A stretch of 32,000 nucleotides of DNA from Candidatus Micrarchaeum sp. Lineage in GTDB: Archaea; Micrarchaeota; Micrarchaeia; Micrarchaeales; Micrarchaeaceae. The notes beneath the pieces were generated by a model that did no database searches, was not told the origin of the DNA, and saw only the letters and a program-made list of their open reading frames with translations. How positions within the stretch are numbered: position 1 is the first letter of the stretch; every line of letters starts with the position of its first letter. Below are positions 3,405 to 31,722 of the stretch, one piece after another. Position numbers and translations under genes: made by a program. The stretch covers positions 150,001 to 182,000 of the forward strand of contig NZ_CP060530.1 in NCBI RefSeq assembly GCF_016806735.1, given 5' to 3'.

Positions 3405-4799
3405 ATGTTTGAAATCTTGAATTTTGCCATACCAATTATCTTCGTAGGGCTTATAGCATCTGGACTCGCCACGGCAATGCACAAAAACAAAAAGCTGTCT
3501 TTCCTGTCCAATACGATAATGCTGCTCCTGGTTCTGGCATTCGGGATATACTATTCCGCATTTTCAATCTCATTCAATGCTGTCTCGCTATACCATGTCT
3601 ATCCGTTTTCATCGTTCCTTCTGGTTCTGTTTTCCCTGGCCCTGCTCACAGTCAATACTGCAGCACTGCATCTCGACGAAAAATACGTAAAATTCGGAAC
3701 GATGCTTCCCCTACTTTCCGTTGGCATACTCTCAGTAGGCATGGCCGCTTCGTTACTTACAATAATAGTTTCAATAGAGCTAATGACAGTTCCGACGATA
3801 TTGCTTATAGCATTCAGCGGAAAGCAGTTTGCAGAGCCTGCGACTAAACTTTTTCTCATGGCCGCGATATCCATAGCAGTGCTTGCGTTTGCCATAACTC
3901 TGGTCTTTCCGTATGATTCTAGCTTGTCGCTCTCGCAGGCAGCATCGGGCAACGTAGGCTCCCAATACTTCTTGGTATTGGCTCTGGTGCTGCTTGTAGC
4001 ATCGCTAGGCACGGAAGCTGCACTATTCCCATTCGATCTTTGGATACCGGACGTTTATCAGGGATCTCCGCACAGCGTAAGTCCGCTTCTGGCAGGAGTA
4101 AACAAGAAAGTGGCGTTCGTAGCCCTGATAGAAATAGCATTCGTGGTATTTTCCGGCCAAAAGGCAGAAATATCCTTGGTATTCGAGGTGCTTGCCATAC
4201 TTACAATGTTCTTCGGCAACCTCGGGGCAATGGTACAGACAAACGTGAAGCGCATGCTGGCATATTCATCCATATCGCAGGCAGGATACATAATGGTCGG
4301 CCTTGCCGCATTTTCGGCCTTCGGTCTAGAAGCGTCTCTTTTCCAGATATTTGCGCATTCGTTCATGATAATAGGCGCTTTTGTTCTGGCTGGCTTTTTA
4401 TCAATGGAAGGGCTCAATACAATAAACGACTATTCTGGCTTATATAAGAGAAGCGGTTTCCTTGCGTTTTCGCTTACTATAATGATGCTGTCAATGGCAG
4501 GCATACCCGGTCTCATCGGCTTCGTCGGCAAGTTTCTGCTGTTCTCCAGCGCAATAAGCTCCGGATTGATTGCCCTGGCCTTTTTGGGAATAATAAACAG
4601 CTTTCTCTCGATATACTACTATGGCAAGCTTATAAGCAACGTCTATTCCAGCAGATCTCACAAGACAATGCACGTGCCAAAGACAATATATCTTCCAATA
4701 TTGGCCACAGTTATAATAATAATCGTTTTCGGCGTATATCCCACGCCCCTGATGTATCTGGCTCATTCGGCTGCAGCATCACTGTTCTCGATTATTTGA
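3405..4799 (+). CDS. nuoN: NADH-quinone oxidoreductase subunit N (ND2-like)
   Basis: 464 aa. Motifs: FPFDLWIPDVYQGSPHSVSPLLAGVNKKVAFVAL and KRMLAYSSISQAGY. It is the last gene of the nuo string. Confidence 0.9.
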   Translation: MFEILNFAIPIIFVGLIASGLATAMHKNKKLSFLSNTIMLLLVLAFGIYYSAFSISFNAVSLYHVYPFSSFLLVLFSLALLTVNTAALHLDEKYVKFGTMLPLLSVGILSVGMAASLLTIIVSIELMTVPTILLIAFSGKQFAEPATKLFLMAAISIAVLAFAITLVFPYDSSLSLSQAASGNVGSQYFLVLALVLLVASLGTEAALFPFDLWIPDVYQGSPHSVSPLLAGVNKKVAFVALIEIAFVVFSGQKAEISLVFEVLAILTMFFGNLGAMVQTNVKRMLAYSSISQAGYIMVGLAAFSAFGLEASLFQIFAHSFMIIGAFVLAGFLSMEGLNTINDYSGLYKRSGFLAFSLTIMMLSMAGIPGLIGFVGKFLLFSSAISSGLIALAFLGIINSFLSIYYYGKLISNVYSSRSHKTMHVPKTIYLPILATVIIIIVFGVYPTPLMYLAHSAAASLFSII

Positions 4800-5898
4800 C
4801 TAGCTTACGCAGGAAAAGGCGCTTAAGCATCAGCGTAGGGCTGTCCATGTCCCCGTACTTAGAAAAGAAGCTCTCAGCTCCAAGGGCCTTGGCAATGCCT
4901 ATGAACCTTTCCATGTGCGCTTCGCTTACCTTTGAATAATAATCGTGAAGCGCAGCATGCATCTTCAAGTCGGCGCCATAGGATCTCCGCCAGTCCTTAT
5001 CATAAAGCGAGAGCTTCCTTCCATCTTTAATGTGGAGGTAAATGCTTCTAGCCGCGACCTTCGCACATGCTATCCCAAATATTATGCCTCCTCCAGTGGT
5101 TGCTTTGGTCTGGCCCGCGGCATCTCCTAACAAAATAACGTTGCCCTCAGCAGTTTTGGCCCTGCTAGAAACTGGTATTATGCTTGCATGGCCCTTAATC
5201 AATTCGGCACCATCTATGGTTCCTTTTACTTCCTCGGTTCCAGTGAAAGAGTCAAATGCCATCATGCTGTGCTTTTTTACCTTGTCCGTTATGCCTATTC
5301 CAAGCTCCGCAACAGAATCGGAATATGGGGCAACCCAGCCGAAAAATCCCTGGGCGTATTTCTTCGAGAAATAAAGGTCAACAATGTTCCTGTTGTTTAT
5401 CTTTGCATTTTTGTATTCTGCCTTGTATGTTAAAACGAAGCTCTTTATCTGCGGGAATGCAAAAGCCCTCGCCACGCTGGATACTGCGCCGTCCGCTCCG
5501 ACTATTACGGTATTGCCGTCGTCAAAATCTCGTATGCGCTCCAAATCTAGCCTGCTGCCGAGTTTTACTTCCACTCCCGCCTTTACAGCGCTCCTGTAAT
5601 TGGCCTCTGCGAGCTTTCCCCTGTCAAGGACATACGCCTGCACATTTTTGGCTATCACGTTGAGCGTCTGCCTGCCGAAATGCAGCCTTGCCCCGCTTAG
5701 CGTATTCACTATGCTGTCCTTATAGTCTATGCCGCTGAGCTCAAGGCCCTTCTTGGACAGTATGCCTGAAGCCTTTTCAGATCCTTCGGAAACATCCTTT
5801 TTTCCGTCATAGACCGTTGTCTCAAGACCGTGGCTTGCCAGCTCTTTGGCCATCACCAAGCCAATTATTCCGGCTCCAACCACAACTACTCTTTTCAA
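4792..5898 (-). CDS. FAD-dependent geranylgeranyl reductase family protein (likely digeranylgeranylglycerophospholipid reductase)
   Basis: 368 aa with an N-terminal Rossmann motif, VVVVGAGIIGLVMAKEL...YDGK. An LLGDAAGQTKATTGGGI motif is typical of archaeal GGR. Its 3' end overlaps the nuoN 3' end by 8 nt (convergent). Confidence 0.8.
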   Translation of the reverse strand: MKRVVVVGAGIIGLVMAKELASHGLETTVYDGKKDVSEGSEKASGILSKKGLELSGIDYKDSIVNTLSGARLHFGRQTLNVIAKNVQAYVLDRGKLAEANYRSAVKAGVEVKLGSRLDLERIRDFDDGNTVIVGADGAVSSVARAFAFPQIKSFVLTYKAEYKNAKINNRNIVDLYFSKKYAQGFFGWVAPYSDSVAELGIGITDKVKKHSMMAFDSFTGTEEVKGTIDGAELIKGHASIIPVSSRAKTAEGNVILLGDAAGQTKATTGGGIIFGIACAKVAARSIYLHIKDGRKLSLYDKDWRRSYGADLKMHAALHDYYSKVSEAHMERFIGIAKALGAESFFSKYGDMDSPTLMLKRLFLRKLVK

Positions 5899-6312
5899 AC
5901 GAAACGCCTCTGCGGTATTTATAGCTTTCTATTTAAACTTATTATTAACTGCGGTGGTTCAACGCCAAACAAGAAAAGCACAAAAAAAAGCGATACGAAG
6001 CCTGCGGGCACCCAAACGGGCAGTCTGGAATCCCCTAAAATATCTATTTATAACATAGTCGTCAGTGCTGACCTTCATGCTGTCGTCGACCTCTACGCCC
6101 TCTCAAAAGAGGTAAAGGCCGTGGATTACGAGCCTGAGCAGTTTCCCGGGGCGATATTCAAGATATCCGAGTCCAGGACCGTCATACTATTCAAGAACGG
6201 CAAGATGATATGCACGGGTGCTAGGACGGAACCTGAGGTCAAGAGCATACTCGAATACGTTGCAAAGGTAATGTCCAAATACGTGATTTCGCTTAATCCG
6301 CCGGAAAAGTGA
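5830..6312 (+). CDS. Single-repeat TATA-box-binding-protein-like protein (one TBP repeat only); start codon uncertain
   Basis: The C-terminal ~90 aa (nt ~6040-6309) are IYNIVVSADL...DYEPEQFPGAIFKI..SRTVILFKNGKMICTGARTEPEVK. This aligns with one archaeal TBP repeat (EYEPEQFPG...LLFSSGKIVCSGAKSE). No second repeat is present on either side. The only in-frame canonical start is GTG 5830, inside the antisense GGR gene. Confidence 0.6.
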   Translation: MACQLFGHHQANYSGSNHNYSFQTKRLCGIYSFLFKLIINCGGSTPNKKSTKKSDTKPAGTQTGSLESPKISIYNIVVSADLHAVVDLYALSKEVKAVDYEPEQFPGAIFKISESRTVILFKNGKMICTGARTEPEVKSILEYVAKVMSKYVISLNPPEK

Positions 6313-6321
6313 ATCTGTACA

Positions 6322-7485
6322 TCACAATTTTGAGACGGATTTAAGCTCCTTGTCAAATTCCCTGAAGAAATGCTCCCAGGAATAGTTTTCAATAACACGT
6401 TTTCTTCCGTTTCTTCCAATCATAGCGGCAAGCTCAGGATCCTTAGATACCTTAAGCATTGCGTTGCACATGGAATGCTCGTCCTCGACCAGATAGCCCG
6501 TCTTGCCGTCTATCACGGTCTCTCTAGGGCCTCCCTGGTTGAGCGCTATGACGGGCTTAGAGCTTGCCATAGCCTCTAGCGGCACAAGCCCGTAGTCCTC
6601 GTTAATTGGCGGATACAGCACTGCCGTGGCTCCCGAATAGGCATCCCTGAACTCGTCCTCGCCCACATTTGCCATTATGGAGATATTCTTACTGCCTTTG
6701 GCCATTTCTGTTATGCGCTTATAGTAATCTTGATAAAATGCATCTTTCGATACTGCACCCATCAGTACGAGCCTATATCCTTTTGCCTTTTTGCTGAATT
6801 CTTCAAATGCTCTTATCGCAAATTCCTGGTTTTTGTTTGGCGAGATACGCGAAGGGTATAGGAAATAATGTTCGTCTCCCCTGTTTCTGTACAGCTTGTA
6901 ATCTATGCCCCCGCCGAGCACTCTGGCGTCATTTCTTCCCAAGTATTTTTCTATTCTTCCCTTGGTGTTCTGGCTGTTGGCAACTATGCGTTCTATTCTA
7001 TTTACTACCTTCCTATCCATGCGCCTTACTGCTTTTATGCCCAGATAATGCACAGGTTTCTGATAAAACTTTTTCATGGACATCCTGAACCTGTACATGT
7101 CATAGGCGTCGCGCAGGGGCGTATGGCAATACCATAGCACGCGCTCGTTCCTGTTCCTTATCCAGTGGCTCGGAGCTATGTGCGCGTTTATCACGTCGTA
7201 ATCCTCGTCCACGTTCATGTTATAAAAGCCGAGGCCGTACTTCAATCCTTGAAAAACCCTCCCGTAGGCGGGAAATCCGGTAGAATTTCCCCCTATGACC
7301 TCAACATCGAGCTTTCCATACTCCGGAAATGTCCCTTCAGGGTCATATTCTGCCGTTATTATCTTGGCACGGTAATGCTGGGCTATCTTCAGAACTACCT
7401 TTTCAGCGCCTCCCTTTAGCGTGAGGTTGGCCTGGGCAATGAGCACCTTCAATCCAATCACTATATAATAAATTCCAGCCATCAA
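6322..7485 (-). CDS. Glycosyltransferase, GT4 (GT-B fold) family
   Basis: 387 aa. The C-terminal motif EDYGLVPLEAMASSKPVIALNQGGPRETVIDGKTGYLV is the E-x7-E sugar-nucleotide region of GT4 enzymes. A TATA-like element lies about 30 nt upstream on the minus strand. Confidence 0.85.
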   Translation of the reverse strand: MMAGIYYIVIGLKVLIAQANLTLKGGAEKVVLKIAQHYRAKIITAEYDPEGTFPEYGKLDVEVIGGNSTGFPAYGRVFQGLKYGLGFYNMNVDEDYDVINAHIAPSHWIRNRNERVLWYCHTPLRDAYDMYRFRMSMKKFYQKPVHYLGIKAVRRMDRKVVNRIERIVANSQNTKGRIEKYLGRNDARVLGGGIDYKLYRNRGDEHYFLYPSRISPNKNQEFAIRAFEEFSKKAKGYRLVLMGAVSKDAFYQDYYKRITEMAKGSKNISIMANVGEDEFRDAYSGATAVLYPPINEDYGLVPLEAMASSKPVIALNQGGPRETVIDGKTGYLVEDEHSMCNAMLKVSKDPELAAMIGRNGRKRVIENYSWEHFFREFDKELKSVSKL

Positions 7486-7563: not shown

Positions 7564-8862
7564 ATGGATCTGGGAGAAGGCATCAGGAAGGCAATGGCAA
7601 AGCTATCGCGAGCCACCATAATAGACGCAAAGACGATAAAAGAGTTCAACAAGGAGCTGCAAAAGACCCTGATAAGCAGCGACGTAGACGTCGCTCTAGT
7701 GCTTAAGCTTACGAGCAGCATAGAGCAAAAGGCCCTAAAATCGAATCCGCCTCCCGGGATTACGCCTCACGATTATATAACCGACATAGTATATAACGAG
7801 CTGGTTTCATTCATGGGCAAGACATACGAGCCCGAAATGAAGCCGCGCAGGATATTACTTATGGGTTTGTACGGCTCCGGAAAAACTACCACTGCTGCCA
7901 AGCTGGCAAAATACTATCAAGACAGGGGCTTGAGCGCCGGCTTAATATGCTGCGACGTGACCAGACCGTCAGCCTACGAGCAGCTGGAGACACTCTCATC
8001 CCAGGCCAACGTGACATTTTTCGGGATAAAAGGCGAGAGCAATGCCGCCAAAATAGTCAAGCAGGGTCTTGAGGCCCTCAAGGGCAAGCAGGTAATCATC
8101 TGCGACACAAGCGGCAGGAACTCAATAAACGAGGAACTGATAAAGGAGCTCAAGGATATAAACAAGGAATTCAAGCCTGACGACACTATACTCGTGCTCA
8201 GCGCCGACATAGGACAGGTGGCTGGCCGCCTTGCCAGCGAATTTGGCTCTGCCGTAGGCATAACTGGCCTGATAATAACCAAGATGGACGGTTCAGGAAA
8301 GGGCGGAGGCGCCCTCAGCGCCGCCAATGCCGCCAATGCCAAAGTAATGTTCATAGGGATCGGGGAGAAACTTTCCGAAATAGAGCCATACAATTCTGAA
8401 AGGTTCATAGGCTCCTTGCTCGGCATGCCTGACATAGCCAACCTGCTCGAAAAAGTGCAGAACGCCATATCGGCTGAAAACATAAACCCTGAGGATGTGG
8501 AAGTGCAAAAGCTGAATTTCGAGAGCTTCTACGCACAGCTCAAGGCGCTGAACAGGATGGGCCCGCTCAAAAGCGTTTTCGGAATGCTTGGCGCATCGGA
8601 TATGCCAAAGGACGTTATAGAAAAGGGCGAGGAAAAGCTCGGAAAATACAAGGTAATAATATCTTCAATGACGAAGGAGGAGCGCCTCGACGAGCACATA
8701 CTGCATCAGGACGGTCGCATAAGGAGGATAGCGCTCGGAAGCGGAACATCCGAAAAGGAAGTAAGGGAGCTGCTTTCAGACTTCGCAAAAATGAAGAAAT
8801 CGTTCAACATGTTGAAAAACGACAGGAATATGAAAAGATTTATGTCAAAATTTTCGGGCTGA
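7564..8862 (+). CDS. srp54: Signal recognition particle protein SRP54
   Basis: 432 aa. The NG domain has G1 LMGLYGSGKTTT, the motif ICDTSGR, and ITKMDGSGKGGGALS. The C-terminal M domain is Met-rich. Confidence 0.95.
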   Translation: MDLGEGIRKAMAKLSRATIIDAKTIKEFNKELQKTLISSDVDVALVLKLTSSIEQKALKSNPPPGITPHDYITDIVYNELVSFMGKTYEPEMKPRRILLMGLYGSGKTTTAAKLAKYYQDRGLSAGLICCDVTRPSAYEQLETLSSQANVTFFGIKGESNAAKIVKQGLEALKGKQVIICDTSGRNSINEELIKELKDINKEFKPDDTILVLSADIGQVAGRLASEFGSAVGITGLIITKMDGSGKGGGALSAANAANAKVMFIGIGEKLSEIEPYNSERFIGSLLGMPDIANLLEKVQNAISAENINPEDVEVQKLNFESFYAQLKALNRMGPLKSVFGMLGASDMPKDVIEKGEEKLGKYKVIISSMTKEERLDEHILHQDGRIRRIALGSGTSEKEVRELLSDFAKMKKSFNMLKNDRNMKRFMSKFSG

Positions 8863-10745: not shown

Positions 10746-10829
10746 CATTAGCGAACCGCTAAACTTATTTTGAACCCGCGACCATCAGCTTAGAAGGCTG
10801 CTGCTCTGTCCAAGCTGAGCTACGGGCCC
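10723..10829 (-). tRNA. tRNA-Arg (anticodon UCU) with a 32-nt intron (10737-10768) in the T-loop between positions 59/60
   Basis: Hand fold. Acceptor GGGCCCG/CGGGCCC; D-arm GCTC-AGCTTGGACA-GAGC; anticodon arm GCAGC-CTTCTAA-GCTGA; T-stem GCGGG/CCCGC. The T-stem is split by an insert that forms an hBHBh' motif: H = TTCA/TGGA, bulges AAA and ATT, h' = TAA/TTA plus the TTAGCG-GTT-CGCTAA hairpin. The spliced T-loop is TTCAAAT. Confidence 0.85.
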
Positions 10830-30520: not shown

Positions 30521-30787
30521 TTGGCGGATAGGCTGGGAAGCTAAGGGTTTCCCGTTCGCAAATCCCTTTCTGGCGGGCCAATGCCGGTTGCGTTATGCAA
30601 GCGGCTTTTGCGCCCAGATGGAAGCGTTGATGCCTTGCCCCAGGTGGTAGCTTGGTGCGTGAACCAGGCCAGGCCGGAAGGAGCAACCTTAAGCACATTC
30701 AGGCTACGCTCCCGGGATACGGGGCTGAGCTGAAGTATGGTCAACGCAACTGCTGCTTGCATGGCAAGGCCGGCTTCCGCCGCTAAG
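30521..30787 (+). ncRNA. Signal recognition particle RNA (7S/SRP RNA)
   Basis: The helix-8 signature CCAGGCCAGGCCGGAAGGAGCAACC (30664-30688) parallels E. coli 4.5S CCAGGUCAGGUCCGGAAGGAAGCAGCC. The 5' GGCGGATAGGCTGG and 3' CCGGCTTCCGCC ends are complementary. The ends are approximate (about +/-5 nt). Confidence 0.85.
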
Positions 30788-31552: not shown

Positions 31553-31647
31553 GCAATCACAAATATCAAACGCAATTTCTTTTATTTAGCATTTTCCCAA
31601 ATCTGTTCTGTAGTAATATGCACTATTTTCAGGCGGTTTAAAAAAAG

Positions 31648-31722
31648 CGGGCTCGGAGGGATTTGGACCCTCGACTTAGAGGTTAAAAGCCTCCCACTCT
31701 GGCCAAACTGAGTTACGAGCCC
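31648..31722 (-). tRNA. tRNA-Lys (anticodon UUU), intron-less
   Basis: Hand fold: GGGCTCG TA ACTC-AGTTTGGCCA-GAGT G GGAGG-CTTTTAA-CCTCT AAGTC GAGGG-TCCAAAT-CCCTC CGAGCCC G. The T-loop reads TCC rather than TTC. Confidence 0.85.

Follow-up and report, generated by a model that had tools for sequence, protein, structure and literature searches.

TBP, the TATA-binding protein, is a textbook pseudo-symmetric protein, assumed to have come from a homodimer of a single domain, and to our knowledge no functional single-repeat TBP has been described as a general factor. Canonical archaeal TBPs carry two repeats in one chain of about 185 amino acids (aa). Stand-alone single TBP-type domains have been described in Thermococcales as monopartite proteins of about 95 aa, which form a separate cluster, show weak local similarity to TBP and coexist with canonical TBP (Brindefalk et al. 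2013, NAR 41:2832). Halobacterial TbpA is likewise a single TBP domain, one that falls among true TBP repeats, and is a sporadic, non-essential paralogue closely resembling its own species' full-length TBPs (Brindefalk et al. 2013, NAR 41:2832). Here we describe a gene for a one-repeat TBP in a stretch of 32,000 nucleotides from Candidatus Micrarchaeum sp. (contig NZ_CP060530.1, positions 150,001 to 182,000, hereafter the window). Our literature search found no paper on single-repeat TBPs in Micrarchaeota or DPANN archaea. We consider it reasonably probable that this protein is the working TBP of Micrarchaeum, acting in its one-repeat form as a symmetric homodimer and translated from an ACG codon.

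Comparison with the canonical archaeal TBP (1MP9; Pyrococcus woesei 1PCZ/1AIS) revealed a shared fold, the shared motifs NIVxS, YEPEQFPG and FxxGK..CTG, in each repeat a shared pair of kinking phenylalanines (Phe) and shared minor-groove residues, and a shared stirrup that contacts transcription factor B (TFB). The window protein has one repeat in 116 aa, about 88 of which make up the domain, where the canonical protein has two, and a saddle would need a symmetric dimer. It is also unlike canonical TBP in its basic N-terminal tail, in its proposed ACG start and in scoring below the NCBIfam TBP cut-offs (79 bits against at least 181). Because it lacks the feature of two repeats in one chain, the window protein is not an ordinary member of the TBP family.

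The open reading frame (ORF) that holds the repeat, 5830..6312 on the plus strand, was confirmed in the window DNA. Pfam PF00352 matched it once, at ORF aa 71-151 and profile positions 2-85 of 85 (71.9 bits, cut-off 22.9), and this full-model match bears out an earlier reading of the locus, made from the sequence only, that had recognized one very good TBP repeat. The NCBIfam whole-TBP models gave 51-79 bits against cut-offs of 181-347, scores to be expected of half a TBP. The sequence-only reading had also noted that the ORF holds a single repeat, and here too the searches agree with it. Two hidden Markov models (HMMs), one family-specific and one for TBP repeats in general, were run unfiltered over the six frames of the window and both returned 6037-6297 only, with no second TBP repeat; HMM counts likewise found no second repeat in 22 orthologous loci. 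A hidden second repeat, or one to be regained through a frameshift as that reading had allowed, was rejected on the empty six-frame searches of the window and related loci and for want of room upstream: the reductase start and the domain are only about 140 nt apart, too little space for a lost first repeat.

The fold of the repeat is that of half a TBP. In a phmmer search of the PDB the best match was 1mp9, the TBP of S. acidocaldarius (E 5.5e-35), with the two repeats of that protein matched about equally well (61.9 and 60.5 bits); identity of the window repeat is 38-40% to 1MP9 and about 50% to canonical Micrarchaeota TBP repeats. With an alignment of 112 sequences, AF2 modelled the domain at a pLDDT of 82.8, and an earlier monomer model from a shallow alignment had a pLDDT of 59. 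All 44 of the 44 Foldseek matches to the PDB at E <= 1e-3 are TBPs with half of the target covered. Their TM scores are 0.73-0.81 when normalized by the query and about 0.42 when normalized by the target, the latter therefore indicating half a saddle.

The residues that would do the work of a TBP are retained. Counting ACG 5962-5964 as residue 1, N31, V33, F61, I75, F77, I83 and T85 vary little or not at all and align with their counterparts in solved TBPs; we take them to be the equivalents of yeast TBP N69, V71, F99, L114, F116, V122 and T124 in the 1YTB complex. The sequence-only reading had suggested checking the conservation of the intercalating Phe positions, and both of these, F61 and F77, are invariant. 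The stretch DYEPEQFPG is invariant in the family, and its core is the same as the C-terminal stirrup of Pyrococcus TBP (EYEPEQFPG).

We found that the gene belongs to a large family of uniform architecture. By protein search we retrieved 362 homologues, of which nearly all have 80-175 aa and one PF00352 match and are 60-77% identical; they come from metagenome-assembled genomes (MAGs) of Micrarchaeota and from Ca. Mancarchaeum acidiphilum, which answers the call of the sequence-only reading for a survey of same-length orthologues: these are abundant. Invariant columns number 35 among 22 representatives and 23 among 112 sequences. The gene order reductase(-)/TBP(+)/GT4(-)/SRP54(+) recurs in distant family members. 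In what follows, L-numbers denote loci and P-numbers proteins. Against L002, the nearest other species, 38 codons of the domain are identical, 43 differ synonymously and 6 change the amino acid, a sign of strong purifying selection. That it might be a pseudogene, or what is left of a two-repeat TBP gene after truncation as the sequence-only reading had offered among its interpretations, draws on the missing canonical start, on the name "hypothetical protein" given by PGAP and on annotations that leave the gene uncalled. Hundreds of intact orthologues with the same architecture speak against this, as do the 43 synonymous against 6 amino-acid changes, the invariant functional residues and the absence of any second-repeat trace in any frame. 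Codon-level conservation together with synteny therefore rules out a pseudogene, and on these comparisons we regard the remnant reading as refuted, with next to no probability left to it; the window TBP is encoded by a conserved gene.

One family member, L006 (JAVYSI010000001.1), is a 36-kb contig that is 98% identical to the window here and is filed under a Methanothrix sp. MAG; MEM3883410.1 and MEM0154222.1 are likewise named Methanothrix sp. The Methanothrix-labelled L006 is almost certainly a mis-binned Micrarchaeum contig.

The start of the gene was the other difficulty recognized earlier, and it is real: from the promoter to the domain there is no in-frame ATG, GTG or TTG. The sole such codon upstream of the domain in its frame, GTG 5830, lies inside the divergent reductase gene, and the following canonical in-frame start, GTG 6121, is within the TBP domain. 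Comparison of relatives points to an answer that had not been proposed, an ACG preceded by a Shine–Dalgarno (SD) motif. When orthologue DNA was aligned by the domain, the upstream layout proved fixed: a TATA-like element, an SD-like motif, 3 nt, the start, a GCN/CCN/TCN codon and then lysine (Lys) codons. The start position is ATG in L013, L019, L091, L166 (Mancarchaeum type) and L172, TTG in L014 and L031, and ACG in the window, L002-L006, L007-L010, L015, L027, L086-L088, L168 and L169. GGTGAT, GGTGGT or GTGAT stands 3 nt before the start position in at least 13 loci, among them L002, L007-L010, L086-L088, L168 and L169 with one of these motifs exactly 3 nt before ACG. The full order of SD, 3 nt and ACG, continued by GCN/CCN and AAR, is present in the window, L002, L006-L010, L015, L027, L086-L088, L168 and L169. 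Other window genes have the same SD layout (24325 GTGAT-ttc-ATG, 25709 GTGGT-ttt-ATG, 14523 GGAGGT-aaca-ATG). Loci without any canonical in-frame start before the domain are L008, L015, L027, L086, L002 and the window, and in four species (L007, L008, L086 and L088) the three spacer nucleotides spell TAA or TGA in frame, a stop that keeps the frame from beginning earlier there.

Codon usage at the start position provided a further line of evidence. The codon is ACG in 16/16 loci, where ACG makes up 26% of threonine (Thr) codons. As controls, one invariant internal Thr is encoded by ACA in 6 loci, ACG in 5, ACT in 3 and ACC in 3, and a second by ACC in 6, ACA in 6, ACG in 2 and ACT in 2. The chance of uniform ACG is below 1e-7 even if only about 12 lineages are independent. 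A uniform ACG beside internal Thr positions that use all four codons therefore indicates that the third base is under selection, as one would predict were pairing with the initiator anticodon to require positions 1 and 3. Downstream, the end of the tail, TGSLxxP, keeps its residue in 5/7 codons relative to L002 although 7/7 codons differ, and retention of TGSL(E/D)xP through synonymous change implies that translation begins upstream of 6016. A start at an in-frame ATA or ATT by the domain edge was rejected on the same upstream conservation and because no SD stands before those codons. From these comparisons we conclude that the gene probably starts at ACG 5962 and that the predicted protein has 116 aa.

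Near-cognate initiation is known elsewhere, from AUU in bacterial infC and from ACG or CUG in eukaryotic and viral mRNAs. The window case resembles these in having a conserved codon one base from AUG in a favourable context: the codon sits at the place of the orthologues' AUG, is conserved in DNA and has an SD at a working spacing. It differs in being archaeal, in its proposed SD-driven mode and in lying in the gene of a general transcription factor. Some observations speak against an ACG start. L167, L170 and L171 have a TTG, ATG or GTG in frame that lies in or touches the SD, and L007, L009 and L010 have a downstream in-frame ATG, making these loci ambiguous. It is also conceivable that the SD-like motif belongs to the initiator region of an mRNA with almost no leader. 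Reviews give archaeal starts as AUG, GUG and UUG, with ACG not among them, and our literature search turned up no archaeal ACG start.

A different start, at GTG 5954 with slippage in the A8 run (5982-5989) or with a sequencing error in that homopolymer, was suggested by L001, in which an A9 run brings the TBP domain into the frame of GTG 5954. Against this, L001 is 546 nt long and its 5' end is chimeric. Both the window and L006 have A8, and a 160-aa reading that implies A8 occurs on several long contigs, one of them a closed chromosome. In L002-L005 the start-frame ATG GTG GTT meets TAA at once, before any A run; other species without an A run still show the SD, 3 nt and ACG; and GTG 5954 forms part of the SD motif. 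We therefore regard a start other than ACG by this route as very unlikely. In L001 the A9 run lies at 135-143 and the first 50 nt or so resemble the reverse complement of the glycosyltransferase region; this chimeric contig gave the misleading 133-aa protein call P0002.

We propose that the protein is made and works as follows. A short mRNA would be transcribed from the TATA boxes at 5916-5937, and translation would begin at the near-cognate ACG, placed by the SD GGUGGU 3 nt upstream. If box 1 is the TBP promoter, the predicted leader is about 10-16 nt and contains the SD motif, with the transcription start judged from sequence; box 2 may serve the minus-strand reductase gene, and its use for TBP would give a nearly leaderless mRNA. 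The product of 116 aa would carry methionine as its first residue through the initiator tRNA, followed by a disordered tail, rich in Lys and about 25 residues long, and the one TBP repeat. Two identical chains would pair by strand S1 and helix H2 into a ten-stranded saddle, as formed from two canonical repeats, with each chain supplying the kinking pair F61/F77, the groove residues N31, V33, I75, I83 and T85 and one EPEQ stirrup to a presumed TATA-binding general factor. Such a dimer would be exactly two-fold symmetric, and promoter direction would come wholly from TFB reading the B recognition element (BRE), as is already so in archaea. The weak ACG start probably holds the protein level low or tunable.

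The intergenic region 5899-5961 (63 nt) has to house two divergent promoters. The boxes at 5916-5923 and 5930-5937 may serve the reductase and TBP genes crosswise, which would be notable if the bound TBP is itself symmetric.

Relatives of the family suggest how such a protein is connected to two-repeat TBPs. We scanned one genome per species as well as metagenomes and counted the repeats per locus by HMM. Apart from the core single-repeat family (group 1), we detected single repeats 45-52% identical to the window protein in an Iainarchaeum MAG, in a "Nanobdellati" MAG and in other Micrarchaeota (group 2). Other Micrarchaeota, under names such as Anstonellales, had TBPs of the usual two-repeat kind (group 3). 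In a neighbour-joining tree of 140 repeats (simple distances, 200 bootstraps) the core family was monophyletic in 200/200 bootstraps and was joined with a sister clade of ten group-2 single-repeat sequences in 144/200. In 179/200 a single clade held all Micrarchaeota-type repeats, whether single, N-terminal or C-terminal, and left out the N and C repeats of other archaea. N and C repeats are 48-72% identical to one another in Micrarchaeota-type lineages and 36-52% elsewhere.

A profile search with the sister-clade alignment, which mostly returned two-repeat proteins, also yielded P0241-P0244, metagenome proteins of 195-196 aa whose two halves are 82-88% identical to one another and 77-80% identical to L019, a single-repeat protein of the sister clade. 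The tail motif is kept in both halves, as MAKR...FKIEN in the first and AKR...FKIEN in the second. These proteins have the same repeat type as the window protein, and each half is like a complete single-repeat protein including its N-terminal tail. In them the two copies are joined covalently within a single chain of 195 aa, and they are either the outcome or the mirror image of the transition for which the window protein stands. Judged by their halves, P0241-P0244 arose recently, when a single-repeat gene was duplicated in tandem and fused; they are in effect covalent homodimers and show that near-identical repeat copies can make a viable TBP. They offer the best available support for the putative homodimerization of the unfused proteins. 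Of the interpretations offered in the sequence-only reading, a homodimerizing single-repeat TBP is the one best supported, by the size of the family and the strong purifying selection on it, the retained contact residues and the fusion in a sister lineage, with homodimerization itself inferred.

Among the multi-repeat proteins, P0289 (272 aa) has three TBP repeats, the first two near-identical, P0288 (376 aa) has a eukaryote-like TBP core present twice and P0307 (702 aa) has four TBP-matching stretches; these could be true multi-repeat TBPs or assembly artefacts. L020 and P0399, single-repeat TBPs of the 'Nanobdellati'/Iainarchaeum-like group, have long Ala/Lys-rich N-terminal extensions like histone tails, with tandem AAKKKAVKKKP units in that of L020.

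Whether the one-repeat protein stands alone bears on two further explanations. The first is a split TBP, in which the window protein is one half of a heterodimer and its partner a more divergent single-repeat protein encoded elsewhere. Split genes are common in DPANN archaea. A general repeat HMM, run unfiltered at E < 10, detected no further TBP-like ORF either in the 32-kb window or flanking 22 other core loci, and we found no assembly with two TBP-type loci among the best 80 genome loci, the latter being weak evidence. The window repeat is equally like the N and C repeats of solved TBPs and not specialized as one half, and near-identical halves work together in P0241-P0244. Support for a partner comes from Ca. 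Mancarchaeum acidiphilum Mia14, which is listed with two members of arCOG01764 (TBP), where most other DPANN genomes have one (Golyshina et al. 2017, PMC5498576, Suppl. Data 4). Just one of the two is the single-repeat protein P0012, present in one copy on the Mia14 chromosome. The other is not a second copy of P0012, was not among the best 120 matches of each of three protein searches and is not mentioned in the text of PMC5498576. On balance we consider a split TBP unlikely.

The Mia14 count could equally reflect an accessory paralogue, with a canonical TBP encoded elsewhere and the half-TBP in a regulatory or unrelated nucleic-acid-binding role. Monopartite TBP-domain proteins alongside canonical TBPs are documented, and canonical TBPs do occur in other orders of Micrarchaeota, Anstonellales for one. 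However, the Thermococcales half-TBPs, which share with the window protein a stand-alone single TBP-type domain, are strongly diverged and far from TBP repeats, whereas the Micrarchaeum family is TBP-like at all functional positions, keeps its DNA and TFB contacts invariant, is about 50% identical to canonical repeats and clusters with those of Micrarchaeota in the 179/200 bootstraps given above. The Thermococcales proteins also coexist with canonical TBP, and none was seen beside the window family in the loci examined. TbpA resembles the window protein in its single TBP domain and is sporadic, whereas the window family forms a deep group of orthologues across a whole order, with its synteny conserved. 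None of the best 120 canonical Micrarchaeota TBPs was on a large contig bearing a single-repeat gene, as judged by the longest contigs. The labels of the matches also divide, with canonical TBPs assigned to Anstonellales, Micrarchaeota and Micrarchaeia and single-repeat proteins to Micrarchaeaceae, Mancarchaeum and Micrarchaeum, and this lineage-wise split suggests replacement, not coexistence. An accessory paralogue is thus, in our view, improbable, and slightly more so than a split TBP. A TBP fold with another function, also raised in the sequence-only reading, is conceivable, with no positive support for it. The window family is set apart from the known ones by its TBP-like functional positions, order-wide synteny, fused-tandem relatives and ACG start.

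Several points nevertheless weigh against a sole, homodimeric one-repeat TBP. The Mia14 count of two is the first of these. The scan for further TBPs covered the window and related loci, and a canonical TBP or a second half-TBP may be encoded elsewhere in the genome; "sole TBP" and "homodimer" are both inferred. No fused tandem was seen within the core clade to which the window protein belongs. The tree rests on 88 columns and simple distances, and its deeper nodes give no firm direction of change.

A bolder form of the proposal is that Micrarchaeales are without any two-repeat TBP, that all their genes are transcribed through an ACG-throttled, symmetric homodimer of the 90-residue half-TBP, and that their neighbours rebuilt two-repeat TBPs by tandem duplication; we put this forward tentatively, as somewhat less than an even chance. 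The window family could serve as a natural model for the origin of the universal two-repeat TBP, with the sister proteins capturing the fusion step. If the proposal is true, the TBP duplication that predates the archaeal–eukaryotic split has been replayed in living, culturable organisms, and a conserved ACG start would widen the known archaeal initiation repertoire. It opens the questions of whether a symmetric TBP can support directional transcription, how TFB alone gives polarity and what the duplication added. Such questions about a symmetric TBP are directly testable in Ca. Micrarchaeum harzensis A_DKE, which has a stable co-culture and a closed genome.

Published annotations treat the gene unevenly. 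Different pipelines call the same locus as 160, 108, 102, 101 or 95 aa, and the 90%-identity cluster of the window TBP includes WP_203134785.1, "hypothetical protein [Candidatus Micrarchaeum sp.]", which is also the PGAP name for the window protein. In the part of the Ca. Micrarchaeum harzensis A_DKE gene table that spans about its first 620 genes (PMC8975820), NuoN, reductase, GT4, SRP54, DRG GTPase, TatD, SecY and HisS match the window in order and lengths. There the reductase, Micr_00169, is followed directly by the glycosyltransferase, Micr_00170, with the TBP gene not called, and neither PF00352 nor arCOG01764 appears among those genes. Pipelines miss the gene or give it a wrong start because they accept ATG, GTG and TTG starts only, and published Micrarchaeum annotations are therefore without their TBP.

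The features of the locus are listed in Table 1. The sequence-only reading described the immediate surroundings correctly: the TBP gene stops at TGA 6310-6312 and the convergent glycosyltransferase gene on the other strand ends 9 nt away, and the Lys/Thr-rich stretch before the domain is real, being the basic N-terminal tail, with Lys-rich tails of a similar kind present in the orthologues.

Table 1. Positions of the single-repeat TBP gene, its elements and its neighbours in the window
Feature	Position	Strand	Remarks
TATA-like box 1 (TATTTATA), then GCTTTC	5916..5923		Same TATA and GCTTTC upstream in L002, L007, L008, L168, L170, L171
TATA-like box 2 (TATTTAAA)	5930..5937		Region shared with the divergent reductase gene
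SD-like GGTGGT (GGUGAU variant, one G-U pair)	5953..5958	+	3 nt before ACG
Proposed non-canonical start ACG	5962..5964	+	Site of ATG or TTG in relatives
Revised TBP coding sequence (proposed)	5962..6312	+	116 codons and TGA, single-repeat TBP
Basic low-complexity N-terminal tail (PNKKSTKKSDTKPAGTQTGSLESP)	5965..6036	+	End part TGSL(E/D)xP conserved
A8 homopolymer within the tail	5982..5989	+	A9 in L001
Single TBP repeat (S1-H1-S2-S3-S4-S5-H2)	6037..6297	+	Pfam PF00352, E 4e-20
Stirrup E57-P58-E59-Q60 (TFB-contact motif) and Phe61 (first kinking Phe)	6130..6144	+	Invariant in 22/22 and 112/112 orthologues
I75-L76-F77-KNGKM-I83-C84-T85	6184..6216	+	Second kinking Phe, F77 (6190-6192), and minor-groove residues; invariant columns
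Geranylgeranyl-reductase-like flavoprotein	4792..5898	-	Divergent neighbour, TTG start at 5898, part of conserved synteny
GT4 glycosyltransferase	6322..7485	-	Convergent neighbour, part of conserved synteny
SRP54	7564-8862	+	Beyond the GT4 glycosyltransferase, part of conserved synteny

We also detected matches to RNA genes elsewhere in the window. A weak tRNA match at 10771-10829 on the minus strand (Rfam RF00005, 33 bits, 59 nt) adjoins the TatD gene and was not found by ARAGORN; it may be a truncated or unusual tRNA. On the plus strand, 30521-30783 matched the archaeal signal recognition particle (SRP) RNA at 97.2 bits against a gathering threshold of 96.5, with 263 nt for a 317-position model, which suggests that the SRP RNA is reduced. 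A tRNA-Lys(UUU) lies at 31647-31722 on the minus strand.

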